The notes: a model not told the origin generated them from the letters alone. DNA of 64,000 nt from Candidatus Latescibacterota bacterium (GCA_965226795.1 CBDDDZ010000002.1:160001-224000), one strand, 5' to 3'; shown: positions 2,915 to 26,864, counted from the first letter of the stretch. Numbers and translations are program-made.

Positions 2915-3381
2915 TGTGTGGCTTAGTCGAACAGCTGAAAAATGGACTTCCTGAAGGGACCATCGTTAAGAGATGCTCGAAAGAGGGTTGCAAGGTTCCG
3001 TTGAAAAACGCCCCGTCGCCGCATCTGGTTATGGATTTGGATCACCCTTATTTCGACCTGAAGGATAAGACACATTGCGATTTTCTGTTCATCAGTTGCG
3101 ACTGCAATGGTGGTGCCAACTGGGTTGTGCCGCTGGAACTAAAACGCGGCAGTCCGGATGCAACAGAAATGGTATCGCAGCTTCAGGCAGGATCAGGCGT
3201 CGCCCAAGCTAGGATTCCTGAAAAACACAGGGCGCAATTCCTTCCGGTGGATGCCTTCGGAGGTCGTTTGCATATAATACAAAGAGACAAGCTCAGAAAG
3301 GCTCGAATCTCGTTTCGGAGGAAAGAATACGAAATTAGACTCATCCGATGCGGGACTCCCCTGAAAACCGCTCTTCCGTGA
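2914..3381 (+). CDS. Small PD-(D/E)xK-like nuclease partner of the ATPase
   Basis: HCDFLF...VPLELKRG motif; TAATG stop/start overlap with the ATPase. Confidence 0.55.
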
Positions 3382-3394
3382 GTACAAAATCCTT

Positions 3395-6300
3395 ATGACT
3401 CCTCCACGCAAAAAACTCATCGAAGTCGCCCTTCCGCTTGACGCTATAAATGCTGCATCCGCCCGGGAAAAGTCCATCCGTCACGGCCACCCCTGCACCC
3501 TCCACCTCTGGTGGGCGCGGCGGCCATTGGCGGCAGCGCGGGCGGTGATCTTCGCGCAGATGGTGGATGATCCATCGGGGCACCCGGATCTGTTTCCGAC
3601 CGAGGCTGATCAGGAGAAAGAACGCCAACGCCTGTTTCGCCTTATCGAGGAATTGGTGAAGTGGGAGAACACCACCAACGAGGCCGTTCTGGAACGGGCT
3701 CGGTCTGAGATACGGAAAAGCTGGCGTCGAACCTGCGCCGATAATGCTGACCATCCACGTGCCAGCGAGTTGTTCGACCCGGATAAACTACCGGCATTCC
3801 ACGACCCTTTCGCCGGTGGCGGCTCGTTGCCGCTGGAGGCCCAGCGCCTGGGTCTCGAAGCCTATGCCAGTGACCTCAACCCGGTGGCGGTGCTCATCAA
3901 CAAGGCGATGATCGAGATCCCGCCGAAGTTCGCAGGAAGGCCACCGGTTAATCCTGAAGCGCGGGCGAAGTATTTGGACGCGCGTACATCGCGCACGAAT
4001 GAGCCCTTGCTGGGTGTGCGGGCGTCCCGCCCGCACAATGCTTGGCACAGCCGCGGATATCTTCCGCATCTGGATCAACCTGACATCATTCAGTCCATCA
4101 CGTTTCGCCTTGCTGATTCAGTCCCGGCCGATGTCATTGCCGCATGGAAGAGCGAATTGGCGCTCAAAGGCAGGGAGGCCGCGAGCGATCCCAGATGCGC
4201 GGAGTTGCGTGAGAGAATTGAACGATACGCTGGACAGGGACATGGAGCCTGCTGGCTAAGAGATGAGCGGATAGCGGGTCAAGTCGAAGACGCCCTACTT
4301 CACTTTGACGGCGTACGCTACCGCTTGCTGTCGTGGGTCATCATGCCCAATCACGTGCATGCGCTGATCGAAACGACTCCCGGCTTTCCACTTGAGGCCG
4401 TCGTTCATTCGTGGAAATCGTTTACAGCCAAGCAAGTTAACAAAATACTTGGCCGGAGCGGCCAGGTCTGGGAAGAGGACTACTTCGACCGTTATATCCG
4501 CGATGAAAATCATCTATCAACTGTGGTAGACTACATCGAGCAGAACCCTGTAAAAGCGGGTTTGGTTGACACGGCCAGCGATTGGCGTTGGAGCAGCGCA
4601 TCAAGAAATGGCAGCAATACAAAACTTGGAGGAACTGCAAGGGAAAATGCGGACGGGACGTCCGCGTTCCCAGGATTGTGGACCGGAGCAAAAGGCCTCG
4701 CGGAGGACGTACGCTATTACGGCCGGTGGATGCGCGACGAAGCCGAGAAACGAATCGGACATCTCTATCCTAAGATCGAGGTTACCCCGGAGATGGTACG
4801 GGAACGCCCCGACCTAAAGAAGTACGAGGACCGCAAATTGACGGTGATAGCGTGGCTATGGGCGCGGACGGTGAAAAGCCCGAACCCGGCTTTCGCCGAC
4901 ATCGAAGTGCCGCTGGCGTCGACTTTTGTGTTGTCCACGAGAAGGGGGAAGGAAGCCTATGTCGAGCCGGTGATTGAAGGCCGTGGGTATCGGTTTGCTG
5001 TGAAGGCGGGAACTCCGTCGGATCCCCAGACAGCGAAGGCCGGGACCAAACTATCGCGAGGAGCGAACTTCCGCTGCTTGATGTCCGGAGCCCCAATGTC
5101 GGGGGATTACATCAAGGCCGAGGGAAAGGCCGGGCGAATGGGATCGCGGCTGATGGCGATCGTGGCCGAGGGCGACCGCGGGCGCGTGTACCTTTCGCCC
5201 ACCCAGGAGCACGAAGCGGTTGCAGACGAGGCGAATCCGGAGTGGCGGCCGGAAGTGACCATATCTGGAAGCACGCAGTATCTCGGTATCAAGCCCTATG
5301 GTATGACCCATTTCGACCAACTATTCACCCCCCGCCAACTAGCCGCCCTGACCACCTTCTCCGACTTGGTTACGGAAGCGATGGGGCGAGTCGAGCGGGA
5401 TGCTGCTACCGTCGATCTATCTAAGGACGAGCGACCCCTGCGGGATGGGGGCACTGAGGCCAAGGCGTATGCGGAGGCGGTGGGGGTGTACGTGGCGTTT
5501 GCTATTGATAAGGGAGCGAACTACTGGTCATCCCTATGCGCTTGGCATCAAACACGTGATGGGATCGTCTCCACTTTTGGACGCCAAGCATTGCCGATGG
5601 TTTGGGACTATACCGAGGCGAATCCCCTCAGTAGCTCGTCTGGTAATGTCCTGCTTGGTGTAGAGCAAGCTGCGAAGATGATCGCCTTACTTGGGGCGGG
5701 GGCTTGCGGTTTGGTGTCTCAAGAGGATGCAGCCACTCAATCAACTAGTGTGGACAAAGTCGTTTCCACTGATCCTCCCTACTACGACAACATCCCCTAC
5801 GCTGACCTGTCTGACTTTTTCTACGTCTGGCTACGGCGCTCGCTCAATCCGGTTTTCCCCAGCCTATTCGCTACACTCGCTGTCCCCAAATCCGAAGAAC
5901 TGGTCGCTTTCGCGTACCGCCAGGATGGTAAGGCAGGTGCCGAGGCCTTTTTCCTCAACGGAATGACCGAGGCGATGCGCCGCCTCGCCGAGCAAGGCCA
6001 CCATAGCTTTCCCGTAACCATATATTACGCCTTCAAGCAGTCCGAGACCAAAGGCGACGCTGGTACTTCCAGCACCGGTTGGGAGACCTTTTTGGATGCC
6101 GTCATCCGCGCTGGCTTTGCACTCACCGGCACTTGGCCGATTCGCACCGAATACACCGGGAACCTAAAGAGAAACCACGCGGCCCTTGCCTCCAGCATCG
6201 TCCTTGTCTGTCGCAAGCGTCTTGCGCGCGCGCCTCTGGCCACACGCCGCGAATTCGTCGCTGCGTTGAGAGAAGAGCTTCCTTCCGCTCTGGCTCACCT

Positions 6301-6976
6301 GCAAAGCGGCAATATCGCCCCGGTGGATCTCGCACAGGCCGCTATCGGTCCCGGCATGGCCGTGTTCACACGATACGCCAAAGTTCTCGACACCCAGGGC
6401 AATCCCGTATCGGTGGGCGAGGCATTGGCGCTGATCAATCAGATACTGGACGAGGTGCTGGCCGAACAGGAGGGAGAATTTGACGCCGACACGCGGTGGG
6501 CGCTGGCGTGGTTCGAGCAGCACGGCTTTGGCGAGGGCGAGTACGGCGTGGCGGAAACCCTGGCGAAGGCAAAGAACACCAGCATCGCCGGCATCGTCGA
6601 GGGCGGTATTCTCGCCTCCCGGGGTGGCAGGGTGCGCCTTTTGCGTCCGAACGAGTTGTCCGGCGATTGGGATCCGACGTCCGACACTCGGCTGACCGTG
6701 TGGGAGGCGGTCCACTACCTGGTCCACGCTCTTGAATCTGGCGGCGAATCAGCCGCAGCTACGCTGGTTCATCAACTAGGGGGCCTCGCCGAGACCGCAC
6801 GCGAACTGGCCTATCGACTATACGTGGTCTGCGAACGCAAAAACCGCGCCGAGGAGGCCCGCTCATACAACGGCCTCGTGCAAAGCTGGCCTGAAATCGC
6901 GCGCCTGTCGCGGGAACGAGCTCCGGCGGAGCAGGGCGACATATTTGGGGACAGAAATTCGGGAAGTGTCGCATGA
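3395..6976 (+). CDS. DUF1156 adenine DNA methyltransferase (copy 1) with in-frame RAYT domain
   Basis: [24 protein letters not shown]-terminus, motif I DPFAGGG, catalytic DPPY; about 235 aa longer than typical because of the insert. Confidence 0.92.
3974..4673 (+). mobile_element. REP-RAYT-REP cassette (Y1 HUH transposase) embedded in frame in MTase 1
   Basis: [20 protein letters not shown] motif [19 protein letters not shown], catalytic [15 protein letters not shown]; REPs at 3974-4000 (degenerate), 4010-4036 (+) and 4647-4673 (-). Confidence 0.9.
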
Positions 6977-6983
6977 CGTAACC

Positions 6984-7010
6984 CTGGGAGCGCGGGCGTC
7001 CCGCCCGCAT
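6984..7010 (+). repeat. REP hairpin (consensus copy)
   Basis: CTGGGAGCGCGGGCGTCCCGCCCGCAT, stem GCGGGCG/CGCCCGC with TCC loop; degenerate copies follow at about 7100-7156. Confidence 0.85.
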
Positions 7011-7647
7011 GTGGGACTTCAATTCTGTCCCGTAGCGCCACGATTGAGCGCCGTTTTGACGATGCCCCACGTCTTGTGGGCATGTCGTTTGGCAAACTTC
7101 TGGAAGCGCGGGCGCCTGCCCTCGATAGGGAGCGCGGGATTTACTCCCTATCGATAGCGTCAGCAGCGCCATTGCGTTGTGACAACCAACGGCGCAGATT
7201 CCGGCGCAATGCCCGCAGGCCCGCCGAACTTTCGCTGTCTCGCCGCAATAAATATTCGGCTATCCATTCCATTATCTAACCTGATCAATTCATGAATTGT
7301 CACGGATTGCAGTTTCGGGAAGTAGAAACAGGTTCCGAGTGAATCGAGAAACGGAAGGAAAGACCTGGCTGTGACGGATTTGGAGTTTTCAAGCCGCTTC
7401 AGTGGCACGTGCTGGTAACACGGTAGCGCCGGTGCGTCAGGTTGTCCTTTATGCCCCGGTCAAAAGCACAGAGGTCTCCCTGTGTTTTGGTGATGGCGAT
7501 CAAAACGTGAAGGCGGATTCAACCGGACGATGCGTTATGGAACGGACGATGCCAGATTGTAGAGGATCTTGGCATAGAGGTGTTTGAGTGGAAACGCGGT
7601 TGGCAGATGGAACGTGATTTTGGTTTTCATCTCACAGACGCGTCCGG

Positions 7648-7677
7648 CCTGCCTGCCGAGCATCCGGCGCAGGCAGG
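7648..7677. repeat. 30-bp palindromic micro-insertion (in frame)
   Basis: CCTGCCTGC-CGAGCATCCGGC-GCAGGCAGG between G and C; removal restores LKVAGRV. Confidence 0.85.
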
Positions 7678-7883
7678 CGACCTTCAAGAGGCGATTTTGC
7701 AGCGTATTATACTGGGCGTTCGTCCACTTGGTGCCGCGCAATCCCATTTCAGCCAAGGTCTGCAACAGGACATAGGCGGCGCTGTGGAGAAAGAGCCGGA
7801 AGTGATTGGCCTCGAAGGTGTGACAAGAGGTGCGATCGGAATGGAGAAAGGTCTTGTGATTCTTGATAAAGCCTTCCATCCTG

Positions 7884-7904
7884 CCTGCCTGGCCGGCAGA
7901 CAGG
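7884..7904. repeat. 21-bp palindromic micro-insertion (in frame)
   Basis: CCTGCCTG-GCCGG-CAGACAGG between G and C; removal restores YCRRGRMEG. Confidence 0.85.
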
Positions 7905-8320
7905 CCGCGTCTACAATAGACGGTTTTGTAGATGAATGAAGGGTTGGCGCGTTGCAGGTTGGTGGCCACGAAACGGATATTGTCTCCTTGCGGTGTCACT
8001 TCCGCCTTGCAGATGATGCGGCGTGGCGAAGCCCAGGTGCTGGCCTGATAGTTCCACGCGTTATATAGGCGTACGGTTTTGCCGGAAACGGCATACAGCG
8101 CTTTGGCCTGGTCCATCAAGGGCTGTGCCCTGGGCAGCAACTTGGCATTGCCGCTTTGTCCAAGGGAAAAATACACATTCTGTGTGTCACACAACGCGTG
8201 AACTTCCGGACACGAAAAATGTGAATCGCCACGCAACAGGATCGCCACATTGGGCCAGGCTCGACGCAAGTAGGCGATCACCCGTTTGAGAATCGAAACG
8301 ATCTCTTTCCCCGTGGGCCG

Positions 8321-8339
8321 CCTGCCTGCAGCAGGCAGG
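8321..8339. repeat. 19-bp palindromic micro-insertion (frameshifting)
   Basis: CCTGCCTGC-A-GCAGGCAGG between G and C; removal restores LRPGVRPTGKEI. Confidence 0.88.
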
Positions 8340-8856
8340 CACGCCAGGACGCAGAATCGTCGTGATCAACCTGCCGGTTTGCCCTTCATAGATATGCAAC
8401 GGTTGGTAGCAATGACTCTTAAATTACGCATTGAATAACGACAACTGCCCAGACCCATACACCTTATCTTCCGTATCGTCGATATCCAACAGGATGGCTT
8501 TGGGCGGTTTCTTATACGAGGCGATAAACACGTCGGCAAAGGCCTTCGCGATCCGATATAAGTCACCTCTGGTGATCCGGTTCTCGAACCGACTCATCGT
8601 GGGTTGACTGGCCAGATCCGCACCGGTCAGCGGCAACCGATCACAGGCCGCCTTGAAGCCGGGGTCCCCGCGTAACGCATTGCAGTCGTTCGCATCCTCA
8701 TACCCACACGCCATCTGAATGACACGCTGACTGACCAGGTCCGCCGTCGGGTGATCCACGTAACTGGGATGCCGACGATCTGTTATGGCCTCAATGATCC
8801 GACGCAAAATGCCGATTTTGGACGCCACCTCCCGCAGCAGCATTACCCCGCTGTCG

Positions 8857-8886
8857 CCTGTCTGCGTGCGTACACGCACAGGCAGG
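8857..8886. repeat. 30-bp palindromic micro-insertion (in frame)
   Basis: CCTGTCTG-CGTGCGTACACGCA-CAGGCAGG between G and C; removal restores GGILTSDSGVMLL. Confidence 0.85.
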
Positions 8887-9128
8887 CTGGTCAGAATACC
8901 CCCATCGAAGGCGGCTTTCACCTGTTTTCCGGAAAGACTTGCGAAAGACATCCTGTGTTGTTTATCTTGAATCTCCACGGTAGTTTCCTCCCGATTCATT
9001 GTGTTAAGGTTATTCGTCTAACCATAATATAATACAATGACTTGGGTACGGAAACTACCTTTTTTGTGAATTATTCAGGCTAATTGAACCCAAACGAAGA
9101 TTGAAAATTAAAAGGCGTTGACTCGAAG

Positions 9129-12100
9129 ATGAATACCTACCGCAAAAAACTCATCGAAGTCGCCCTACCGCTTGACGCGATAAATGTCGCGTCGGCCAAG
9201 GAGAAGTCCATCCGACACGGCCACCCCAGCACCCTTCACCTCTGGTGGGCGCGACGGCCGTTGGCAGCGGCACGGGCGGTGATCTTCGCACAGATGGTGG
9301 ATGATCCATCGGCACATCCCGATCTGTTTCCATCCGAGGCTGACCAGGAGAAAGAACGCCAGAGCCTGTTTCGCCTTATCGAAGAATTGGTGAAGTGGGA
9401 GAACACCACCAACGAGGCGGTACTGGAACGGGCGCGATCGGAGATCCGCAAGTCCTGGCGTCGAACCTGCGCAGAAAACGCAGACCATCCGCGTGCAAGC
9501 GAGTTGTTCAACCCCGACAAGCTGCCGGCATTTCACGACCCTTTCGCCGGCGGCGGCGCATTGCCGCTGGAGGCCCAACGACTGGGGCTCGAAGCCTATG
9601 CCAGTGACCTCAACCCGGTGGCGGTGCTCATCAACAAGGCGATGATCGAGATCCCGCCGAAGTTCGCAGGAAGGCCGCCGGTTAATCCTGAAGCGCGGGC
9701 GAAGTATTTGGACGCGCGTACATCGCGCACGAATGAGCCCTTGCTGGGTGTGCGGGCGTCCCGCCCGCACAAGGCCTGGCACAGCCGCGGATATCTTCCG
9801 CATCTGGATCAACCTGACATCATTCAGTCCATCACGTTTCGCCTTGCTGATTCAGTCCCGGCCGATGTCATTGCCGCATGGAAGAGCGAATTGGCGCTCA
9901 AAGGCAAGGAGGCCACGAGCGATCCCAGATGCGCGGAGTTGCGTGAGAGAATTGAACGATACGCTGGACAGGGACATGGAGCCTGCTGGCTAAGAGATGA
10001 GCGGATAGCGGGTCAAGTCGAAGACGCCCTACTTCACTTTGACGGCGTACGCTACCGCTTGCTGTCGTGGGTCATCATGCCCAATCACGTGCATGCGCTG
10101 ATCGAAACGACTCCCGGTTTTCCACTTGAGGCCGTCGTTCATTCGTGGAAATCGTTTACAGCCAAGCAAGTTAACAAAATACTTGGCCGGAGCGGCCAGG
10201 TCTGGGAAGAGGACTACTTCGACCGTTATATCCGCGATGAAAATCATCTATCAACTGTGGTAGACTACATCGAGCAGAACCCTGTAAAAGCGGGTTTGGT
10301 TGACACGGCCAGCGATTGGCGTTGGAGCAGCGCATCAAGAAATGGCAGCAATACAAAACTTGGAGGAACTGCAAGGGAAAATGCGGACGGGACGTCCGCG
10401 TTCCCAGGATTGTGGACCGGAGCAAAAGGCCTCGCGGAGGACGTACGCTATTACGGCCGGTGGATGCGCGACGAAGCCGAGAAACGAATCGGACATCTCT
10501 ATCCTAAGATCGAAGTCACTGCGGAGATGGTCCGTGAACGGCCCGACCTCAAACCGTACGAGGGTAAAAGGTTGACGGTGATCGCGTGGCTTTGGGCACG
10601 GATGGTGAAGAGTCCAAACCCGGCCTTTGCCGACGTAGACGTGCCGCTGGCCTCCACATTCATGCTATCGACAAAGAAGGGGAAAGAGGCGTATGTAGAG
10701 CCGGTGATCGAGGGGCGCGGTTATCGGTTTACGGTTAACGTGGGGAATCCAAATGATGCGGAATCGACGAGGCGGGGCACCAAGTCGGGTGGAAGCGGTA
10801 GCTCTTTTCTTTGCCTCATGTCAGGGACTCCAATGCCATTCGATTATCTTAGGAGCGAGGCCAAGCAAGGTCGAATGGGTGAGAAACTGATGGCAATAGT
10901 CGCAGAAGGCGACCGCGGCCGGGTTTACATCCCCCCGACCGAAGTGCAAGAAGCGATCGCAAAGCGCGCTACGCCGGCTAATACCCCGGAAACCGACCTA
11001 CCTGAACGGGCACTCGGATTTCGCGTGCAGCAGTACGGTATGACCAAGTGGCGGGATCTCTTTGCAGCACGCCAACTCGTCGCCCTGACCACCTTGTCGG
11101 ACTTGGTCGCAGAGGCAATGGAGCGCGTCAACCGCGATTACTTGGCAGCACAGGTCCCTGACATACCTTCGAGCGGGACAGCCTCGGTCCCAGACAACGA
11201 TACGCCCCTACGCAACGGGGGCGCTGGCGCAATGGCGTATGCTGAGGCGGTGGGGGTGTATCTCGGATTGGCTGTGAGTAAGGAGACGGTTTTTCTCGTA
11301 ACACAGGCTCGCTGGAGAGCAGGCGAGGGCAAATCAGCACCTGGGTTTGGGAGGCAGGCGTTGCCAATGGTCTGGGACTACGCAGACCTGAATCCGTTTG
11401 CAGGAGCTGGTGGCGACTTTCTTGGCGTCATTGAGGGGATTGAGAAAACCCTGCGCAATGCGCCTCCTCCGATCGCTGGGTACACTGATCAAGCGGATGC
11501 GATGAATCAGAAATTAAGTCTCGACAAGGTTGTGTCAACGGACCCACCCTACTACGACAACATTGGCTACGCCGACCTTTCCGATTATTTTTACGTTTGG
11601 CTGCGCCACCCGCTTAAGCCGATCCTTCCCTACCTCTTTACTACGCTCGCCGTACCAAAGGTCGACGAATTGGTCGCCACACCATACCGTCACGGCAGCA
11701 AGGTGAAAGCAGAGAAGTTCTTTCTCGATGGTATGGGCCAGGCGATGTGCCGCTTGGCCGAACAAGCGCACCCCGGCTTTCCGGTCACCATCTACTATGC
11801 CTTCAAGCAGTGCGAGACCAAAGGCAACAGTGGTATTTCCAGTACCGGGTGGGAAACTTTCCTGGCTGCCGTAATCCAGTCAGGCTTCGCAGTCACAGGC
11901 ACATGGCCGATGCGTACGGAGAATTCGACTCGGCTTGTCGGTATGATCACCAACTCACTCGCATCCAGCATAGTCCTCGTCTGCCGCAAGCATTCGGCCA
12001 ATGCACCGCTGGCCACGCGCCGCGAGTTCGTCGCCGCGTTGCGGGGAAAACTTCCAAGCGCTCTAGCCCGACTTCAATCCGGAAACATTGCCCCGGTCGA

Positions 12101-12749
12101 TCTGGCGCAGGCAGCCATCGGACCCGGCATGGCAGTGTTCACGCGCTATACCAAAGTACTCGATGCCCAGGGCAATCCCGTATCCGTAGGTGACGCCTTG
12201 GCGTTAATTAATCAGACACTCGACGAGGTTCTTGCCGAGCAGGAGGGCGAATTCGACGCCGACACGCGGTGGGCGCTGGCGTGGTTCGAGCAGGAAGGCT
12301 TTGGCGAGGGCGAGTACGGCGTGGCGGAAACCCTGGCGAAGGCAAAGAACACCAGCATCGCCGGCATCGTCGAGGGTGGTATTCTCGCCTCCCGGGGTGG
12401 CAGGGTGCGCCTTTTGCGTCCGAACGAGTTGTCCGGTGACTGGGATCCGACGTCCGACACTCGGCTGACCGTGTGGGAGGCGGTCCACTACCTGGTCCAC
12501 GCTCTTGAATCTGGCGGCGAATCCGCCGCCGCCACGCTGGTTAACCAACTCGGCGGTGTCGCCGAGACCGCACGCGAACTGGCCTATCGGCTATATATCG
12601 TTTGCGAGCGCAAGAACCGCAATGAGGAAGCCCGCTCTTACAACGGCCTCGTACAAAGCTGGCCTGAAATTGCACCCCTGTCTCGGGAGCGAGCTCCGGC
12701 GGAGCAGGGCGACATCTTTAGGGACCGAAATCCGAGAAGTGTCGCATGA
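9129..12749 (+). CDS. DUF1156 adenine DNA methyltransferase (copy 2) with in-frame RAYT domain
   Basis: Same motifs as copy 1 (DPFAGGG, DPPY); central specificity region differs. Confidence 0.92.
9708..10407 (+). mobile_element. REP-RAYT-REP cassette embedded in frame in MTase 2
   Basis: Near-identical to 3974-4673 (offset 5734); HUH and catalytic Tyr intact. Confidence 0.9.
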
Positions 12750-12756
12750 CGTAACC

Positions 12757-12783
12757 CTGGGAGCGCGGGCGTCCCGCCCGCAT
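12757..12783 (+). repeat. REP hairpin
   Basis: Identical to 6984-7010. Confidence 0.85.
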
Positions 12784-12955
12784 GTTGGAACAGCATATGG
12801 CCGCAGTCCTATCGCTATATCTATGCCATTCCAGAGGCGTAGCGGAAGAAATAACAAGATGCGACCGGCAAGCGGCCCCGTCGGCCGAGATTGGGGACTG
12901 TGAGAACTCACTTTATGAGTGTCCGCTGTGACGGCATAAGTAGAGGTCCAACGGA

Positions 12956-14329
12956 ATGAGTTTAGTGCAATATCTACGTCGTTTTCGTGAGACCCGACGC
13001 ATAGCCCGAAGACAGGCTCGTAGCTGGGGGCGCGATTTATCGAGGTCTATCAAGGCCAATCAAGGTCGGCTCGCGCTAATCGTCATTCTGGTGGTCGCTC
13101 TCGGGGCCGTCGCCTGGATGCTGATTGCCTCCTGGAACTGGCTGAGCACAGACTTCTGGACTTGGCTACGAGGGGAGCCGAATCGGATGGAATCAGGTAG
13201 CACGACCGTTCGCAATCTCGGCTTGCTTATCGCTGGCCTAATCGCCCTGCCGCTCGCGATTTGGCGCAGTTGGGTCGCCCATCGCCAAGCCGACACGGCA
13301 CAGCAGAATCTATTGAATGAACGCTACCGACAAGGGGCCGAGATGCTTGATAGCGAGATCCTGTCGGTCCGCTTGGGTGGGATCTACGCGCTACAACGTC
13401 TTGCGGTGGAAAATCCAAAGCAATACCACGTCCAAGTGATGCAGTTATTGTGTGCGTTCGTGCGACACCCCCCAAAAGGTAACAGCGACAAGCAAAAAGA
13501 GGTAATCGGGGATCGAAAGAAACCCGAGTTGCGCAGTGACGTGCAAGACGCCGTGAGCGCAATTAGCGCATGTCATGCTCGACAAAGCAAATTGGAAAAT
13601 AGATTGGGTTTTCGATTAGATCTGCGTGGCGTTAATCTCTCCAGTGCGGACTTGTTTAAGGCAGTGCTAAGCAAAGCGAATTTTTCCGATGCAGACTTGT
13701 CGGGAGCAGGGCTTATCGGCGCGAATCTGGCAGGGGCAGTGTTGACTCGCGCGAATCTGGCAGGGGCGCGGCTGACCGGCGCTAACCTAAATGGCGCCAG
13801 ATTCGAACGTGCGAACCTCTCGGAGACGCGGCTTGAAAGTTCAGATTTAGCTATGGCAGGCCTCGCGAACGCGAACCTCTCTATGGCACGACTATCCAAT
13901 GCAAGCCTGACCGAAGCACATCTCTCAAACGCAAACTTGGCCGGGGCATCGCTTCACGACTCTGATCTATCCAAGACACGGCTCCAGGGAGCGAACTTGG
14001 CCAGAGCATCACTGTATCAGGCTAGCCTGACCGGGGCAATACTCTCACGAACGAATTTCGACGGCGCAGGGCTTGGTGGTGCGAATCTGCTGGGCTCGGA
14101 CTTGTCCAACGCGAATATGTCCAATGCAAATCTGTCGCCGGTTGTTACGACTACACATGAAGTCGGGAAAGAACCGTACCAGGAGAAGTTCCTAACCAAA
14201 TTGACGCAGGCTCAGCTTGATGTCGCCTGCGCCGAGTCGGACACACCACCTAATCTGAGCGGTGCCGTAGATGCTGAATCTGGCAAGCCGCTGGTGTGGC
14301 GTGGCAGACCTTTAAATAGTCATTCGTAG
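12956..14329 (+). CDS. Membrane-anchored pentapeptide-repeat protein
   Basis: Two hydrophobic segments, the ERY..GAEML..VRLGGIYALQRLA motif and long A(N/D)LxxAxL repeats. Confidence 0.9.
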   Translation: MSLVQYLRRFRETRRIARRQARSWGRDLSRSIKANQGRLALIVILVVALGAVAWMLIASWNWLSTDFWTWLRGEPNRMESGSTTVRNLGLLIAGLIALPLAIWRSWVAHRQADTAQQNLLNERYRQGAEMLDSEILSVRLGGIYALQRLAVENPKQYHVQVMQLLCAFVRHPPKGNSDKQKEVIGDRKKPELRSDVQDAVSAISACHARQSKLENRLGFRLDLRGVNLSSADLFKAVLSKANFSDADLSGAGLIGANLAGAVLTRANLAGARLTGANLNGARFERANLSETRLESSDLAMAGLANANLSMARLSNASLTEAHLSNANLAGASLHDSDLSKTRLQGANLARASLYQASLTGAILSRTNFDGAGLGGANLLGSDLSNANMSNANLSPVVTTTHEVGKEPYQEKFLTKLTQAQLDVACAESDTPPNLSGAVDAESGKPLVWRGRPLNSHS

Positions 14330-14600
14330 ATGTATGAAGACGCCGCGCCCGCGATCTCGATTGGAACCTACAGTGAAATGTATCGACTGTACGCATCTCG
14401 TTCCAACTGGATCATCCGCGTCTGGGAATGGCGAGCTTGGCGACGGGTCCGCCAATTTTGTAGCGCGCCGGTCGCGCCAAAAGGTGCTGTGCGAATAGGG
14501 CGAGTTATTCGGAGGCGGAGCCGACACACTATAAAGTAAATGACTAAGTCGCTATACATTTTTGTACGGAAAATTCACGAGTGAGAAGGGAGACACGATC

Positions 14601-17435
14601 GTGACATCAGATCCAAGTAGCCGCTGGCGTTACCCGGGTGCACGATGGTGGAAGTTTGACTTCCACACCCACACACCTGCGTCAGCGGACTATGGCCGAG
14701 GACCGGACCAAGCTGCTCTACGGCAGATAACTCCTACCGACTGGCTACTAGCATTTATGCGCGCTGGCGTGGATTGTGTGGCGGTAACTGATCATAACTC
14801 GGGCGAGTGGATCGACGGGCTCAAAACGGCACTCCTTGACCTAAAGCACGATCCGCATCCAGACTTTCGGCCCCTTTGTCTGTTTCCAGGAGTTGAGATC
14901 ACTGCCAACGGTGGCATTCACATTCTCGCGATACTCGACACTGACAAGTCCTCTGCGGACGTCGCGTCGCTTCTTGGAGCAGTCGAGTACCACGGTGAGC
15001 GCGGTGAGACTGATGTTGCCGCTAATAAAGCACCTATCGGGGTCGTAAAAGCCATCGTCGATGTCGGCGGTATTCCAATTCTTGCACATGTAGACGAGCC
15101 GGGGGGAGCCTGGAAACTTTCGGGAAACACGCTTAACCCGTTGCTGGAATTCGATGGATTGTTTGCAATGGAAGTTGTCGATTCGACCGCGAAAAAACCT
15201 GAAAAATACCGACAAATGAAGCTCAATTGGGTTGAAATTCTTGGGTCGGACTCACATGACCAAACCGGCAAGACTGGCTCCCGTGTTCTCGGTTGCCATT
15301 ACACGTGGGTAAAGATGGCGGAACCGTCTCTCGAGGGGTTGCGCTTGGCACTCCTGGACGGCGGCGGTTTTTCGATTCGGCGCAGTGATGATTCGCGTCC
15401 TTTTGATCCGTTTGGATTGCCTGAGCACTTCGTTGAAGCTTTCGAAATCGAAGATGCGCAATACATGGGGCGTGGAGATTCGGCGAAACTCAGCTTCAGT
15501 CCGTGGCTCAACGCGCTGGTTGGAGGGAGAGGTACGGGAAAATCAACAGTAATCCATGGTATAAGGCTTGCGTCAAGACGTGAGCAGGAATTGGCAAATT
15601 TCGAAGAGAATTCCGAGCCCCGCTTGATCTTCGATCAATTCAACCGGGTGCCTGGGGACCGCACGGACCGTGGTGGTTTGACAAATTCAACAGAAATCAG
15701 GTTGACTGTGATGCGGAACGACGTTCGGTATCGAGTGCGCTGGCGGCGCGACGGTTCCGGGATAGTAGTAGAGGAGGACGCAGGCGAACAGGGTTGGGGC
15801 CCGTCGAACATTCAAAGTGTTACGCCCGAACGCTTTCCAATCCGGATTTTTAGCCAGGGACAGATTGCAGCAATGGCGGGAGAGAACCAACAGGCATTGT
15901 TGCAGGTGATTGACGACGCTGCGGGTGTGGTCGGGCTACAGCGTCAACTCTATGATGCCAGGAGCGAATTCTATGCGGCGCGGGCGCGGATTCGCGAACT
16001 GGACGGCAAGTTAGTTCGCTGGGATGATCTAAGGGTTGAGAAGGATGACGTGGAGCGAAAACTGAAGCGTTTTGAGGAAGCGCGACATGGGGAAATTCTA
16101 ACCCTTTACCAACGCAGCATTCGGCAGCAAAGGGAGATGGAACGCCAGTTTGAGTCAACGGATGCTGCCGCACAACATATTGAAGATGCAATTAGCGCGG
16201 TACATTCCGAAGATGTGCCGGAAGGATTGTTCGACACGGAATCTGACGAAGATCGCGAAGCCCTGTCAGCCATAGATGCGTTGGCTTCCGCCATAAAGAC
16301 TGCTGCCGAAACCCTATATTGCACCGCAGAGGGACTACGTGCGGTCGTCAAGACACAAAGGAGCGAGTTGTCCAAAAGCGAATGGCAGACGGCTGTGAAT
16401 GAGATCGTCTCTGAGTATGAGCAGTTGGTCGAAACACTTCAATCGGAGGGTGTCTCTGATCCGAGCGAGTACGGCCGCCTTGTGCAGGAGCGACAGCGAC
16501 TGGATAGCGAAATCGAAGTTATGAAGTCGATCAGGAAGGAACGTTGTGGATTGGAAAAGCAATGTCGATCGCTGCTCGAGCGAGTCTTGGAAACTCGGCG
16601 TGCCGTGAGTACAGAGCGCGACGAATTCCTTGAAGACGCTTTGGCGCAGAACAGTTTCGTGCGTATCCGAAACCTATCATACGGCGACGACCCCCGTGTT
16701 ATTGAAGGTGGATTGCGCGAGGCATTGGGCGTTCTCGACGAACGTTTTCAGCTCGACATTTTGGATATGGATGGCGAGTCGCCGGCGAAAGGAATCGTTG
16801 CAGAAATAATGAATGGCTTGCCGAAGGAGCCCTCGGAACGCGGTTCTGAACTGGAAGACCGGATTGACCGTCTAAAAGACCGCTTTCCCGCTGCTTGTAA
16901 GGGTCACGGTGACTTTGGAGGTCGTTTCAACAACTATCTGAAACGTGAATTCGAGAGACGACCTGAATTCCTCGATGGATTGCTGACGTGGTTCCCGGAT
17001 GATTCCTTACGGGTGGAATATAACCGGGTGGGCGATGGAACGGATTTTCGGCCCATTACACAGGCTTCGTCCGGACAGCGGTCGGCGGCGATGCTGGCGT
17101 TCCTACTGGCACACGGCGAGGAACCGCTGGTGCTGGACCAACCGGAGGACGATCTGGACAACCATTTGATCTATGACTTGGTTGTTCGCCAAATCCGTGA
17201 AAACAAACTAAGGCGACAGATCATAGTTGTGACACACAACCCCAACATCGTGGTGAACGGAGATGCGGAGATGTTGCATGCACTTGAATTTGTAAGCGGA
17301 CAGTGCATTGTGGAGCAATCTGGATCATTGCAGCAGGAGGCCATGCGCGAGGAAGTCTGCCGCATAATGGAGGGAGGGCGCGAAGCGTTCGAGCGCCGCT
17401 ATCGCAGACTTGGACCGGAGCCAACCCATGTTTGA
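14601..17435 (+). CDS. PHP-domain phosphoesterase fused to an ABC/SMC-like ATPase (TrlF/Ppl-like)
   Basis: DFHTHTP, TDHN, AHVD and GSDSH metal motifs; Walker A GGRGTGKS; SSGQRS, LDQPEDDLDN, VTHNPN; start placed at GTG 14601 (ORF open from 14562). Confidence 0.88.
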   Translation: MTSDPSSRWRYPGARWWKFDFHTHTPASADYGRGPDQAALRQITPTDWLLAFMRAGVDCVAVTDHNSGEWIDGLKTALLDLKHDPHPDFRPLCLFPGVEITANGGIHILAILDTDKSSADVASLLGAVEYHGERGETDVAANKAPIGVVKAIVDVGGIPILAHVDEPGGAWKLSGNTLNPLLEFDGLFAMEVVDSTAKKPEKYRQMKLNWVEILGSDSHDQTGKTGSRVLGCHYTWVKMAEPSLEGLRLALLDGGGFSIRRSDDSRPFDPFGLPEHFVEAFEIEDAQYMGRGDSAKLSFSPWLNALVGGRGTGKSTVIHGIRLASRREQELANFEENSEPRLIFDQFNRVPGDRTDRGGLTNSTEIRLTVMRNDVRYRVRWRRDGSGIVVEEDAGEQGWGPSNIQSVTPERFPIRIFSQGQIAAMAGENQQALLQVIDDAAGVVGLQRQLYDARSEFYAARARIRELDGKLVRWDDLRVEKDDVERKLKRFEEARHGEILTLYQRSIRQQREMERQFESTDAAAQHIEDAISAVHSEDVPEGLFDTESDEDREALSAIDALASAIKTAAETLYCTAEGLRAVVKTQRSELSKSEWQTAVNEIVSEYEQLVETLQSEGVSDPSEYGRLVQERQRLDSEIEVMKSIRKERCGLEKQCRSLLERVLETRRAVSTERDEFLEDALAQNSFVRIRNLSYGDDPRVIEGGLREALGVLDERFQLDILDMDGESPAKGIVAEIMNGLPKEPSERGSELEDRIDRLKDRFPAACKGHGDFGGRFNNYLKREFERRPEFLDGLLTWFPDDSLRVEYNRVGDGTDFRPITQASSGQRSAAMLAFLLAHGEEPLVLDQPEDDLDNHLIYDLVVRQIRENKLRRQIIVVTHNPNIVVNGDAEMLHALEFVSGQCIVEQSGSLQQEAMREEVCRIMEGGREAFERRYRRLGPEPTHV

Positions 17436-19362: not shown

Positions 19363-20538
19363 ATGCGAATTGAGCAGATTGAGATCAGGAATTACCGGCC
19401 CTTTCGTCACGCCGTGCTTGACAATCTGCCGCCCATGGCCGTAGTTGTCGGTGCCAACGGCTCGGGCAAGTCAACGCTCTTTGATGTGTTTAGCTTTCTC
19501 AAGGACGCGCTGGTCCAAAACGTCGCCATGGCGGTGGCGCGGCGCGGCGGGTTCCGCGAGTTGATTAGTCGGGGAGAGAATGGGCCGATTGAGGTCACCA
19601 TCAAATTCCGCGAGAGCGGCGGGCGGCTGGCCACCTATCTTTTGCAGGTGGTCGAGGACCATGGGCGCGTAGTCGTGGACCGCGAGATTCTGCGCTATCG
19701 TCGGGGCCAGTACGGAAAGCCCTGGCATTTTGTGGACTTCTCGTGTGGAGTGGGAACGGCGATCACGAATGAGTCCGTTTATGGTCAGGAAGGGGCTGTC
19801 GAGGAGCGGGAAGAATACGAGCTTGACGATCCAAGCATCTTGGCGATCAAGGGGCTGGGTCAATTCCGCGAATTCCGTGTTGTCTCGGAGTTCCGTAGTC
19901 TGATCGAGAACTGGCACGTCTCGGACTTCCACATCGCCGACGCCCGGCCAAGTGCCGAAGCCGGTTACGCCGAACATTTGTCTAACCGTGGCGATAATGT
20001 CGCTCAAGTCGCTCATTACCTCTATGAGCATTACCGCGAGTGCTTTGACCGAGTGCTGGAGGCCATGAGCCAGCGTGTTCCGGGCGTTAGCGGTGTTGAA
20101 GCCAAACCGACGGAGGACGGACGTCTCGTCCTACGCTTTCAGGATGGCAGCTTCAAGGATCCATTTATCGCCCGTTACGTCTCCGACGGCACGATCAAGA
20201 TGTTTGCCTACCTCGTGTTGCTTTATGACCCCAAGCCCCATCCGTTGCTTGCAATCGAAGAACCTGAAAACCAACTCTACCCCGAATTGTTAATAGAGTT
20301 GGCTGAGGAGTTTCGCGACTACGCCCGGCGCGGCGGCCAAGTGTTTGTTTCAACCCACTCGCCCGATTTTCTGAACGGGGTGGAAATCGGAGAGATTTTC
20401 TATCTGGTCAAGAAAGATGGCTTCACTACCGTACGTAGAGCGTCCAACGTCAAGTTGCTACGCGACCTCGTCGTTGAAGGCGACCTGCCAGGTTCGCTCT
20501 GGAAGCAAAGGCTCTTTGAGGGAGTCGGACCACGATGA
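19363..20538 (+). CDS. AAA_21/SMC-like ABC ATPase
   Basis: GANGSGKS, SDGT signature, IEEPENQLYP, STHS. Confidence 0.9.
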   Translation: MRIEQIEIRNYRPFRHAVLDNLPPMAVVVGANGSGKSTLFDVFSFLKDALVQNVAMAVARRGGFRELISRGENGPIEVTIKFRESGGRLATYLLQVVEDHGRVVVDREILRYRRGQYGKPWHFVDFSCGVGTAITNESVYGQEGAVEEREEYELDDPSILAIKGLGQFREFRVVSEFRSLIENWHVSDFHIADARPSAEAGYAEHLSNRGDNVAQVAHYLYEHYRECFDRVLEAMSQRVPGVSGVEAKPTEDGRLVLRFQDGSFKDPFIARYVSDGTIKMFAYLVLLYDPKPHPLLAIEEPENQLYPELLIELAEEFRDYARRGGQVFVSTHSPDFLNGVEIGEIFYLVKKDGFTTVRRASNVKLLRDLVVEGDLPGSLWKQRLFEGVGPR

Positions 20539-21087
20539 AGCGCATTGTTTTCCTATTGGAAGAGTTCTCAATGGAGGGCATGCTGGACGTCTTGCTGCCG
20601 AGGTTGTTTCCCGGACTGTCCTTTCAGTGCGTACCTCATGAAGGCAAACAGGACTTGGAGAAGAGCATACCTCGAAAGTTGAAGGCTTGGCATGAGCCGG
20701 GGGTGCTTTTCTGTGTGATCCGGGACAACGATAGCGGAGATTGCCGGGCACTGAAAGAAAAGCTTGTCGTGCTGTGCAAGTCGGGGGGCAGAGACGATAC
20801 GCTGGTCCGTATCGCCTGCCAGGAGTTGGAGGCCTGATATTTGGGAGAGCCGGACGGCGCTGGCGGAGGCGTTTGGAAATGAGAAGCTGCGGGGAATCGA
20901 AAATAAGGCACGCTTTCGTGACCCGGATGCGGTCATCAAGCCATCTGCGAAAATCCGCGATCTCGTTCCCGAATTCCAAAAGGTATCGGGCGCTCGCCGA
21001 ATTGCCCGGTATCTGACCCGTGACAGGAATAGGTCGGCGAGCTTTCGGGCTTTTCTCGGGGGAATCGAGAACCTGTGGCGCAATTAG
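20535..21087 (+). pseudogene. DUF4276 (TOPRIM-like) partner, disrupted
   Basis: FLLEE.SM, HEGKQDLE, RDNDSGDC, then ELEA*YLG (TGA at 20835 replacing the expected Trp) and a frameshift into ALAEAFG...RFRDPD...NRSASF. Confidence 0.8.
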
Positions 21088-21138: not shown

Positions 21139-24100
21139 ATGGCCATTACAAATCAAGAACGCGTCGGCAAGGCGCTCGAACTCCTCAAGGCCGGGCTCGG
21201 CCCGTTTGTCGGGCGCGAGGTCCAGGACAGAATCGAGGTCGGTGGCGTACACATGGACGTGATCCGGCGCTTCGTCGATGATCCGCACCTGACGGACAAG
21301 CCCATAGAGAAGTGGGATGCCTCCGCACTCCTCAAGCTGATGTGGGATACGTGGAACGACGTATTCCGCAACACGTTGGGCCATGCCGAGCGCAGCCTCG
21401 TCAGCGAGATTCGCAGCCAGCGCAACAAGTGGGCGCACCAGGACAGATTCTCCGGCGACGACGCCGACCGCACGCTCGACTCTATCGCCCGCCTGCTGAT
21501 GGCAGTCTCCGCGCCGGAGGCGGACGAGGTCAACCGCATGAAGATGGAGTTGCGCCGTCTGATCTTTGAGGAGCAGGCGCGCAACGAGCACCGCCGAGGT
21601 GCCGGCGCCACCGTCGAAAGCCAGGTCGCCCCCGGCCTGAAGCCCTGGCGCGAGGTGGCAACGCCGCACACCGACGTGGCGACTGGCGGGTATCAGCAGG
21701 CGGAGTTCGCGGCGGATTTGTGGCAGGTTCATCTCGGAGAGGGCTCGGACGAGTACCGTGACCCGCGGGAGTTCTTCCGTCGGACGTACCTTACCGAAAG
21801 CCTGAGACGTCTGCTGGATGGCGCGGCGAGGAGGCTGGCCGGCAAGGGAAGTGACCCGGTGGTGCAGTTGCAGACCAACTTCGGCGGGGGCAAGACGCAC
21901 TCCATGCTGGCGCTTTACCACCTGTTTTCAGGCATTGCACCGGGAAAGCTCGAGGGTATGGACGAGGTGCTGGCGGGAGCGGCAGTCGATACGCCCTCGG
22001 CCGTACGGCGCGTGGTGCTTGTTGGCAACCGCATCTCCCCTGGCAATCCGGTGGAAAAACCGGACGGGACCGTGGTGCGCACTTTGTGGGGCGAACTCGC
22101 CTACCAGCTTGGCGGGCGAGATGCGTTTGAGCGGGTCCGCGCCGACGACGAACAGGCGACGAATCCCGGTGATGCGTTGCGCGAGCTATTCAACGAGTAC
22201 GGACCTTGCGTGGTGCTAATCGATGAGTGGGTGTCGTACGCGCGACAGCTCCACGATGAGGGAGATCTGCCCGGCGGCAGTTTTGAGACGCAGTTCACCT
22301 TTGCGCAGGCGCTAACCGAATCGGCGAAACTTACGGGCAACTGCCTGCTGGTGATTTCGCTTCCGGCTTCGGACACATCCGATTCGAGTTCGCCGCACGC
22401 AGAGGCTGACGATGCCGAGGTGGGCGGCATCCGGGGCCGCAGCGCCCTGGAACGCTTACGCAATGTACTCGGGCGGGTGGATTCGCCCTGGCGACCGGCA
22501 AGCGCAGAGGAGAGTTTCGAGATCGTGCGGCGGCGGCTGTTCGAACCGCTCGCGGGGACGGACGCCTTCAAACAACGCGATTTAACTGTGCAGGCTTTTG
22601 GGGAACTTTACCGCTCTCAACAGGTGGAGTTTCCCGTCGATTGTCGCACCATGGAATACCAGCGCCGCGTTCAGGCCGCATACCCGATTCATCCGGAGAT
22701 CTTTGACCGGCTCTACACGGACTGGTCCTCGCTTGCCAGGTTCCAGCGCACCCGCGGCGTGTTGCGACTGATGGCTTCGGTGATCCACAGCCTGTGGGAG
22801 AGTGGAGACCGCAATCCGATGATTCTTCCGTCCACCATCCCCATTGACGATCAGCGGGTGCAGAATGAGTTGACACGGTATTTGCCTGAAAACTGGACGC
22901 CCGTCATCGAAAAGGATGTTGACGGTCCCGGCGCCTTACCCCTCAGGATCGACGCCGAGGCGCCGAACCTCGGCAAACTCTCTGCGGCACGGCGGGTGGC
23001 GCGCACCGTTTATCTCGGTTCCGCGCCGACCACGGCAGCGGCCCACCGGGGTATCGATGATGCCCGGGTCAAGCTCGGCTGCGTGATGCCGGGGGAATCG
23101 CCTGCCATATTCGGCGATGCGCTGCGCAGGCTGGCGGCGGCGGCGACCTATCTCTACCAGGACGGTGCCCGGGTGTGGTATGCGACGCAGCCCACCGTCA
23201 CCAAGCTCGCCGAAGACCGCGCCGAGCAGTTGAGGGGGCAGCCCGACGAGGTGGCGGCGGAACTGGAAAAGCGACTCAAAACGGACCTGCGCGCGGCGGG
23301 AGACTTCGAGCGAATTCACCCGCTGCCCCGTTCAGGGGCGGACGTGCCCGACGACCTCGATGCACGGCTCGTGGTGCTTTCGGCGGAGCAGCCCTATTGG
23401 AAAGAGCCGGACAACGCGGCCCAGGTTGCCGCAAAAGACATCCTGGAGATGCGCGGCAACACGCCGAGGCTCTACCGGAATACGCTGGTCTTCCTTGCGG
23501 TGGACAGGGTGCGATGGCAGGACCTGGACGAAGCCCTGCGCAGGTACCTGGCGTGGGAGTCGATCCTCGAGGACAGGGTCGCACTCAACCTGGATCCGCA
23601 CCAGGCCCGCCAGGCCGAAAACCAGAAGAATGCGGCTAACGACACGGTCACGGCTCGCCTTCCGGAGGCATATCAGTGGCTGCTGGCGCCGGAGCAGTCT
23701 AACCCACAGTCGGCGCTGTCATGGAACGCGATCCGACTGACGGCCTCCGGCGGGCTCGCAGAACGGGCTTCCAGGCGACTGCGCAACGACGAGATGCTGG
23801 TTTCCACGCTCGGCGCCACGATTCTTCGGAAACACCTCGACGACGTGCCGCTCTGGCGCGGCGATCACGTAGAAGTCCGGCAACTCGTCCAGGACTTCGG
23901 GCAGTTCCTGTACCTTCCGCGGCTCGCGGGCCCGGACGTACTTATACGCGCGATTCAGGATGGCGTATCCCTGTTGTCCTGGAAAACCGACAGCTTCGCC
24001 TTTGCCGAGAGTTACGACCGTAGAGAAACGCTATCGGGGGCTGCGGGCAGCTGGAACGTCAATGTACCGCCAGAGAGCACGGCAATACTTGTGAAGCCGT

Positions 24101-24462
24101 TGATTGCCGGGGAGCAGTTGGAACGAGAGAAGCCGCGAGAACCGGGAGTAGAGACGCCCGGCGATCCTGAGGAAGAAATTCGACGTGACGACACACCACC
24201 TCCGACGCCGGAGCCACCCGAGGTGAAACCTCGCCGGTACCATGGCGCGGTGACGCTGGACGCCCAAAGGGTGGGCCGCGACGCCAGCCAGATCGCCGAC
24301 GAGGTAATCGCGCATCTTTCAGGGATCGTAGGCGCGGATGTGACGGTTACGCTGGAGATTCACGCGGAGATACCGGATGGGGCTCCGGAAACTGTCGTGC
24401 GGACGGTCACCGAGAACAGCCAGACGCTGAAATTCGAGAGCCACGGGTTCGAGGAGTCGTAG
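21139..24462 (+). CDS. Swt1-like HEPN + DUF499 AAA+ ATPase (restriction-like/BREX-related)
   Basis: MAITNQERVGKAL start, RNKWAH HEPN-type motif, EFAADL, QTNFGGGKTH Walker A, LIDE Walker B, FQRTRGVLR. Confidence 0.92.
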   Translation: MAITNQERVGKALELLKAGLGPFVGREVQDRIEVGGVHMDVIRRFVDDPHLTDKPIEKWDASALLKLMWDTWNDVFRNTLGHAERSLVSEIRSQRNKWAHQDRFSGDDADRTLDSIARLLMAVSAPEADEVNRMKMELRRLIFEEQARNEHRRGAGATVESQVAPGLKPWREVATPHTDVATGGYQQAEFAADLWQVHLGEGSDEYRDPREFFRRTYLTESLRRLLDGAARRLAGKGSDPVVQLQTNFGGGKTHSMLALYHLFSGIAPGKLEGMDEVLAGAAVDTPSAVRRVVLVGNRISPGNPVEKPDGTVVRTLWGELAYQLGGRDAFERVRADDEQATNPGDALRELFNEYGPCVVLIDEWVSYARQLHDEGDLPGGSFETQFTFAQALTESAKLTGNCLLVISLPASDTSDSSSPHAEADDAEVGGIRGRSALERLRNVLGRVDSPWRPASAEESFEIVRRRLFEPLAGTDAFKQRDLTVQAFGELYRSQQVEFPVDCRTMEYQRRVQAAYPIHPEIFDRLYTDWSSLARFQRTRGVLRLMASVIHSLWESGDRNPMILPSTIPIDDQRVQNELTRYLPENWTPVIEKDVDGPGALPLRIDAEAPNLGKLSAARRVARTVYLGSAPTTAAAHRGIDDARVKLGCVMPGESPAIFGDALRRLAAAATYLYQDGARVWYATQPTVTKLAEDRAEQLRGQPDEVAAELEKRLKTDLRAAGDFERIHPLPRSGADVPDDLDARLVVLSAEQPYWKEPDNAAQVAAKDILEMRGNTPRLYRNTLVFLAVDRVRWQDLDEALRRYLAWESILEDRVALNLDPHQARQAENQKNAANDTVTARLPEAYQWLLAPEQSNPQSALSWNAIRLTASGGLAERASRRLRNDEMLVSTLGATILRKHLDDVPLWRGDHVEVRQLVQDFGQFLYLPRLAGPDVLIRAIQDGVSLLSWKTDSFAFAESYDRRETLSGAAGSWNVNVPPESTAILVKPLIAGEQLEREKPREPGVETPGDPEEEIRRDDTPPPTPEPPEVKPRRYHGAVTLDAQRVGRDASQIADEVIAHLSGIVGADVTVTLEIHAEIPDGAPETVVRTVTENSQTLKFESHGFEES

Positions 24463-24475
24463 CGACGGCCCCACA

Positions 24476-24496
24476 ATGCGGGCGCGACGCCCGCGC
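24476..24496 (-). repeat. REP hairpin, truncated
   Basis: ATGCGGGCGCGACGCCCGCGC, 13 bp after the DUF499 stop. Confidence 0.7.
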
Positions 24497-26782: not shown

Positions 26783-26864
26783 ATGCGGGCGGGACGCCCG
26801 CGCCCCCAGGAAGTGTTCGGGCGGTACCGAGCGATAGTCGAGGGCAGGATGCCCTCGGTCCCAG
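26783..26864 (-). repeat. Two tandem REP hairpins
   Basis: 26783-26809 ATGCGGGCGGGACGCCCGCGCCCCCAG and 26838-26864 TCGAGGGCAGGATGCCCTCGGTCCCAG. Confidence 0.85.

Follow-up and report, generated by a model that had tools for sequence, protein, structure and literature searches.

We analysed a 64,000-nt stretch of DNA from a Candidatus Latescibacterota bacterium (GCA_965226795.1 CBDDDZ010000002.1:160001-224000; hereafter the window), in which a gene for the DUF1156 adenine methyltransferase HmaB carries, in frame, a REP-associated tyrosine transposase (RAYT) together with its flanking repetitive extragenic palindromes (REPs). The arrangement is real, widespread and apparently unpublished, and we read it, with moderate confidence and from comparison of sequences, as a mobile REPtron that would live unspliced inside host proteins and be translated with HmaB, with a putative nuclease activity and a putative capacity to move. 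The features of the methylase gene and its insert are as follows (window coordinates).

3395..6976, plus strand: HmaB / DUF1156 adenine methyltransferase, copy a, with the RAYT insert; one open reading frame (ORF) of 1193 codons
3803..3823, plus strand: methyltransferase motif I (S-adenosylmethionine binding), upstream of the insert
3974..4000, plus strand: degenerate REP, translated, at the left edge of the insert (site 1); relatives show a recognisable REP peptide there
4010..4035, plus strand: left REP hairpin, translated; 5' tag GGTG, consensus GGAG
4043..4597, plus strand: RAYT (Y1 HUH transposase) core; its own ATG and stop are both absent
4349-4360: NHVH motif of the RAYT core; HVH is residues 320-322
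4532: catalytic Tyr380 of the RAYT core
4648..4673, minus strand: right inverted REP hairpin, translated, at the right edge of the insert; tag GGAA
5390..5460, plus strand: site 2 loop of the methylase, near residues 670-690; empty here, RAYT-filled or REP-scarred in relatives
5771..5782, plus strand: DPPY catalytic motif, downstream of the insert
6984..7009, plus strand: extragenic consensus REP, directly 3' of the copy a stop codon

A REP-RAYT-REP unit is read in frame within HmaB

The insert of copy a (~235 codons, 3974-4673) is arranged as REP-RAYT-REP and holds no stop in the coding frame, while each of the five other frames has 5-11. Pfam places DUF1156 at residues 12-82 and Y1_Tnp at residues 309-384, and PADLOC assigns the protein to HmaB with 1523 bits, the profile being broken at the insert and resuming at position 210 for residue 427. 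The preliminary description, made by a model from the sequence alone, had reported such a stop-free REP/RAYT/REP insert of ~235 residues between an intact motif I and an intact DPPY motif, with no obvious internal ribosome-binding site or start, and the ORF, the Pfam hits and the stop counts bear it out: the two motifs lie at 3803-3823 and 5771-5782 and are both present in 103 of 103 long filled homologues, and the in-frame TTG/GTG codons of the insert, at residues 194, 205 and 208, are by eye preceded by no clear ribosome-binding site. Site 1, where the unit sits, follows a PPVNP motif near residue 192, and the insert also takes the place of a 7-12-residue linker of HmaB. The AlphaFold model of copy a (pLDDT 82.9, pTM 0.76) gives both RAYT and methylase with confidence, RAYT as a separate domain, and leaves the REP-coded linkers (residues 195-218 and 407-426) disordered; site 2 is modelled as a loop between two helices. 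In this model the REP-RAYT-REP unit is in a predicted surface loop of HmaB, the question that the preliminary description had left to structure prediction.

Domain calls were based on profiles and a PDB sequence search. The insert scores 92.8 bits against the NCBIfam RAYT profile NF047646 (cut-off 80) and 29.8 bits against the IS200-type TnpA profile NF033573, below its cut-off of 55, which rules out an IS200/IS605 identity. Its best PDB sequence match is Escherichia coli TnpA-REP (4ER8, E 2e-7), and its motifs (NHVH, WE and YIEQNP, with an HUH-Tyr distance of 60) are like those of both subclass 2.1 and subclass 2.7 in the table of Quentin et al. (2018). The closest named relatives of the insert are in the Candidatus Latescibacterota genomes L001 and L002, which makes this the likely phylum of the host.

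The left REP at 4010-4035, first described as a perfect REP, is indeed a perfect hairpin but departs twice from the family consensus, once in the 5' tag, which reads GGTG where the consensus has GGAG. The REP core matches the 64-kb window 15 times, several hairpins being scored on both strands, against 1.4 matches expected, and the genome holds 13 copies of the family (at most 3 mismatches), seven in the hma locus and four beside a WYL/cas operon. Read in any of the six frames, the consensus REP is open; no frame has a stop in 260 of 267 distinct REP copies (57/80 loci), compared with 3858 of 5000 (77%) GC-matched controls. CC or CT stands just before the tag in 195/267 copies, at positions outside the search pattern. 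Elsewhere in the genome, at G000:C5:3052400-3052780, four consensus REPs of this family form a tandem array with a period of ~125 nt; a WYL gene and a cas5/cas8-like operon follow downstream (gene names by inspection).

No splicing module is found at the junctions

Rfam gave no match over 3300-13000 at E<=0.1, and the Hint family is absent among the Pfam hits of the window proteins, in line with the earlier remark that no intein splicing motif was to be seen. Only about 70-80 nt separate the RAYT core from the host on either side, and the junctions are REP-coded peptides. An intein was rejected on the missing Hint domain and on these REP-coded junctions, which are disordered in the model; an IStron or a group I or II intron was rejected on the Rfam result and the short flanks. 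Metatranscriptome contigs from related strains span both junctions, the left with 3896-4045 and the right with, for example, 4505-4940, a weak hint that the fusion is transcribed. In two RNA-library contigs the host sequences on either side of the insert are joined (3937-4697 and 3948-4703, with short sides of 27 and 38 nt); we did not accept these contigs as splicing products, because the letters between the joined parts are unknown and the joints fit empty alleles of other organisms.

The inserted RAYT is conserved as strictly as its host

All 104 fused rows and all 69 free rows retain H320, H322 and Y380. Between filled alleles with the same junction, the ratio of non-synonymous to synonymous substitution rates (dN/dS) of the RAYT core is 0.06-0.09 at dS 0.9-1.5, similar to that of the host's own N- and C-terminal parts (0.05-0.10), and the REP-coded linker reaches 0.3-0.7. 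These comparisons indicate that the RAYT inside HmaB is under purifying selection; the neutral drift of the RAYT part that the preliminary description had named as a sign against its reading is not what the core ratios and the unchanging active site display.

Filled, empty and scarred alleles occur at two sites

When residues 150-480 were the query, a Y1_Tnp annotation appeared in 119/120 among the matches listed, which is not a frequency because the query itself selects for the domain. With the C-terminal half of the host as query, the best 120 matches comprised 98 proteins empty at both sites, 13 filled ones (ten at site 1 only, one at site 2 only and two at both) and nine that could not be placed at site 1, one of which, P0152, has a Y1 domain. 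Within the genus, the gene is filled in the window's genome G000 (twice), G008 and G010, and intact and empty in G001, G002, G005 and G013; in G004 site 1 is empty and the gene is broken, and in G016, from the same family, both sites are filled. In five of the 14 other genomes of the genus the HmaB protein found no match at E<=1e-30. A search of 168 genomes of the phylum gave 17 matches, spread over 12 of them, and ten of the matches lie within frames of 1203-1441 codons; nine of these ten are HmaB by their flanks, and the other is L130. Among the best 80 genome loci of the RAYT, 11 lie in HmaB (L009 is truncated after the insert) and 69 were labelled free. The same fusion stands in the single-contig chromosomes of G008, G010 and G016, and an assembly chimera, the other objection that the preliminary description had foreseen, was rejected on this recurrence.

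Site 2 also preserves what appear to be remains of past occupancy. In P0157 the empty site 2 carries a REP-pair scar with the same junctions as the filled P0032, and some other empty site-2 loops hold decayed versions of the REP pair. At site 1 the left junctions fall into several classes using two REP reading frames, the window's class accounting for 44 of the 84 proteins scored; this grouping is a crude one of left junctions only, as finer frame-class pattern matching left many rows out.

The two loops also hold other material. The site 1 or site 2 loops of P0181, P0243, P0208 and P0257 contain peptides resembling other palindromic repeat families, which may be the DUF559-linked, other RAYT-linked and GxxExxY-linked repeats. 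At site 1 of P0063, P0103, P0104 and P0113, inserts of 137-198 residues lie between tandem repeats and match no Pfam or NCBIfam entry among the families scanned; presumably they may be a small four-helix-bundle gene read in another frame.

Several origins, other host proteins and an escaped copy

In the RAYT tree (187 rows, dereplicated at 93% from 240 collected), fused and free rows are interleaved with at least 16 changes between the two conditions, and a single fused clade was rejected by the approximately unbiased (AU) test (p-AU 0.0055, 32-row subset). The host tree, built with both loops removed, requires 24 changes at one site and 19 at the other, counts that overstate the independent events because HmaB recombines. 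Relatives of the insert are also internal to PriA, MmeI (in two places), a type III Mod protein, an Snf2 helicase, a WYL protein and a creatininase, and stand at the ends of HsdM, MiaB-like, MttB and HAD proteins; these non-HmaB fusions are known here from protein records. In the PriA fusions P0337 and P0384, the RAYT is in frame between the 3'-binding and helicase domains, and the flanking repeat peptides differ.

A further copy lies outside any host gene, about 5.5 kb before the window:

C2:153700-154520: free RAYT with a second REP type

It aligns with the site-2 fusion of G016 along 771 nt at 80.7% identity; the similarity starts inside the host exon, and the free copy has about 45-50 nt of methylase exon aboard. 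This scrap finds its best alignment at site 2 in 14 of 19 HmaB genes tested, with a score of 51 for G016 against a shuffled maximum of 42. The free exon-carrying RAYT precedes hmaA in five genomes (G000, G001, G008, G010 and G013), has gained in G000 and G013 an in-frame ATG from a decayed REP, and is still constrained, with dN/dS of 0.09-0.27. Because it carries a scrap of HmaB exon from site 2, it is a fused copy that has outlived or left its host gene.

Two filled copies and a mosaic host gene

The window holds a second filled methylase, which the preliminary description did not mention.

9129..12749, plus strand: second HmaB, copy b, 1206 aa; same in-frame insert at about 9708-10407
12757..12782, plus strand: extragenic consensus REP, 3' of copy b
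3854..4779, plus strand: tract near-identical in copies a and b, with 6 differences in 926 nt, reaching ~120 and 105 nt past the insert edges

The target-recognition region of copy b is only about 60-70% identical to that of copy a, and dS between the copies is 0.57 and 0.46 in the N- and C-terminal parts and 0.017 in the RAYT core. A similar pattern separates copy a from the G008 allele (dS 0.05 in the core, 1.6 and 0.96 in the flanks), and in the proteins P0010 and P0012 the core is 99% identical to that of the window, the N-terminus 86-87%. Between the two hmaB copies, at 7535-8999 on the minus strand, lies an IS1380-type DDE transposase in two pieces.

A proposed unspliced mobile element inside host proteins

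In the reading we prefer, the properties of the REP itself would make the fusion tolerable: a GC-rich repeat that is open in six frames would be translated into flexible linkers, so that both enzymes could fold and work. The RAYT would act while tethered and borrow the host promoter and start codon, as it could if it is a monomer like E. coli TnpA-REP, which cuts at CT under its 5' tag (PMC3479197). Its putative target would be single-stranded DNA next to a hairpin with the GGAG tag, nicked at CT or CC. For a group 3 enzyme the tag bases guide the choice of CT, CA or CC (PMC8266576), and by this rule a GGAG tag would select CT and CC, the two dinucleotides that precede the tag in 195 of the 267 REP copies. 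Strand transfer or repair driven by the nick could then occasionally put the unit at new places and convert neighbouring alleles, and deletion from REP to REP would remove the core and leave an in-frame, refillable scar. The RAYT probably keeps a working nuclease because the nuclease is its means of spread. A stronger form of this reading is tentative, with the chances somewhat against it: that the RAYT clade is an autonomous element, a permanently tethered active domain, spliced neither from RNA nor from protein, that nicks next to the hairpins translated with it, homes into empty or scarred alleles, jumps to new loops including those of housekeeping genes such as priA, and escapes as a free gene. 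The preliminary description had offered, as one of two possibilities, a stealth parasite of a gene that is costly to lose. The passenger half of that proposal fits the patchy occurrence, the two sites, the several origins, the purifying selection on the RAYT, the scars, the escaped copy and the relatives in unrelated host proteins, but the costliness is doubtful because five of the 14 other genus genomes lack an HmaB match at the threshold used.

Several points weigh against the mobile reading. First, the case for activity and movement is built from comparisons of genes. The tags of the two REPs inside copy a are altered, and with E. coli TnpA-REP any tag change abolishes cleavage (PMC3479197); the window's copy may no longer cut its own ends. 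The REP family is also small in this genome, at 13 copies. Second, the samples are not neutral: homologues were gathered by likeness to an intact RAYT, so that decayed copies are under-sampled; the 32 rows of the AU subset were picked after the first tree was seen; and some of the copies labelled free may be fusion relics (L003 has no N-terminus), a few having long open flanks. Third, the whole HmaB gene is a recombining mosaic, which is what inflates the host-tree counts. Copies a and b share another near-identical tract (6518-6717, 97-98%), so that conversion between them also reaches beyond the insert. The exchange between G000 and G008 took place between alleles that were both filled, and no empty one was invaded. 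At last, the homologue alignment from which the preliminary description had hoped to fix the empty site did reveal two loops and several origins but yielded neither a clean empty-site reconstruction nor a target duplication from the genus alleles, the duplication being unreadable because the difference from the empty alleles, at dS near 1, includes the replacement of a 12-residue linker.

Some of these points suit an explanation that we regard as unlikely but serious, in which the RAYT is kept for a host benefit of the kind proposed for free RAYTs, and the fusion is a tolerated accident that provides the RAYT with expression and moves only by ordinary HmaB recombination. The mosaic structure throughout HmaB agrees with it, as does the free exon-carrying RAYT, which is similarly constrained with no methylase attached, and formal evidence of autonomous mobility is lacking for the class (PMC6006769). 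Yet some insertion activity is needed to account for two HmaB loops, several junction types and unrelated host genes, and the tract exchanged between G000 and G008 is the RAYT core alone.

Domestication, the other possibility in the preliminary description, would make the RAYT an accessory nickase contributing to Hma defence or rearranging the island that the REPs mark. It can point to the 15 of the best 80 RAYT loci that are associated with Hma-type genes (11 within HmaB, four nearby), to the concentration of cognate REPs (seven of 13 in the hma locus, four beside the WYL/cas operon) and to selection on the RAYT as strong as that on the host. The enrichment near Hma genes is, however, biased by the query, and we do not favour this explanation, which seems improbable to us: 98 of the best 120 hosts do without the insert, it has been lost repeatedly to scars, its position varies between two loops or a helicase gene instead, and the same RAYT clade occurs in PriA and in metabolic enzymes.

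Selection for folding alone, by which the insert would be inactive but has to remain folded because it would otherwise poison the methylase, is very improbable. A tethered domain of 190 residues would be structurally constrained whether active or not, but this does not account for the invariance of the surface residues H320, H322 and Y380 in all 104 fused rows, and simple deletion to a scar is both possible and observed. That the cell makes something other than the full fusion, the insert being removed from RNA or protein or the ORF being a chimera of assembly, is hardly credible, for the two flank-to-flank RNA contigs that speak for it have unknown letters at their joints and fit other organisms' empty alleles, other contigs span each junction, Rfam gave no match and Pfam no Hint domain, the fusion recurs in three single-contig chromosomes, and the frame is kept in more than 100 proteins, which RNA splicing would make needless.

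Relation to known elements

Compared with the REPtron typified by E. coli TnpA-REP (PDB 4ER8; PMC3479197, PMC3733652, PMC6006769), the mobile element proposed here shares the core with HUH motif and catalytic tyrosine, the inverted REP hairpins with a 5' tetranucleotide on either side, and further REP copies nearby. It departs from the standard REPtron in not standing free: a start and a stop of its own are both absent, and it is translated inside another protein. Its tag is GGAG, whereas that of the REPtron is GT[AG]G, and its filled, empty and scarred alleles suggest movement of the whole unit, for which formal evidence is described as lacking (PMC6006769). Whether RAYT genes move themselves, and why they are retained, is regarded as an open question (PMC6006769; PMC5581495). 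Intragenic REPs and Rickettsia palindromic elements are in-frame palindromes, often in DNA-processing genes, that form flexible linkers (PMC3733652); the REP pairs among them resemble the scars seen here, but they encode 20-82 residues and no transposase, whereas here the enzyme itself is within the gene.

Inteins with homing endonucleases and IStrons are nuclease-carrying elements tolerated inside genes. The HmaB insert is like them in outline, with patchy alleles, loss and likely re-entry of a nuclease-bearing element, and differs in having no protein- or RNA-splicing module, so that the element stays in the product; its sites are also variable loops and not conserved motifs, and its enzyme is a single-strand HUH nuclease. 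If the reading is right, it sets a way of life without splicing next to those of inteins and IStrons, marks two loops of the Hma methylase as tolerating folded domains of about 200 residues, and explains many long 'methylase/transposase' annotations that surveys discard; one RAYT survey threw out unusually long proteins as fusions or annotation errors (PMC6006769). Close relatives provide one gene in filled, empty, scarred and escaped form, and these alleles are natural substrates for a direct mobility assay. In the full-text literature, we found no description of whole RAYTs inside host ORFs; the supplements of PMC12839542, PMC3733652 and PMC6006769 may list such cases, and subscription journals are largely outside this coverage.

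The host defence locus

The host locus is an Hma / Type-1 BREX-related system, with helicase, DUF1156 methylase and DUF499 ATPase together. Beyond the two methylases, its marked features are the following.

C2:154848-158435: HmaA, Snf2 helicase-nuclease, just before the window
21139..24462, plus strand: HmaC, HEPN-DUF499 ATPase (PADLOC)
26785..26810, minus strand: REP of the insert's family, past the end of the hma locus

The PADLOC score for HmaA was obtained on the G001 orthologue, which is 91.5% identical to the G000 gene, and those for HmaB and HmaC on the window. The gene layout matches the Type-1 BREX-related system of PMC12839542, with which the locus has the Snf2 helicase-nuclease, the DUF1156 adenine methylase and the HEPN-DUF499 ATPase in common; here there are two methylase copies, each RAYT-filled. 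In the main text of that paper the terms 'transposase', 'HUH' and 'RAYT' do not occur, its supplements lying outside this term search.

More defence-type genes lie in the hma locus (1355-2914, 14562-17435 and 19363-20837), encoding an AAA_15/21 ATPase, a Ppl-like PHP-ATPase and a HEC-01-like ATPase with a small partner. Just after hmaC, at 24763-26109 on the minus strand, a transposase-like ORF is flanked by REP-like hairpins at 24478 and 26785. Far from here, at G000:C5:988000-1003000, a second Hma-like locus has an insert-free DUF1156 methylase, and between its helicase and methylase lie a TIR-domain gene and an Argonaute-like gene (names by inspection). A different free RAYT with its own repeats is located at G000:C5:2055900-2056530, directly upstream of an ORF resembling a type I restriction specificity subunit.

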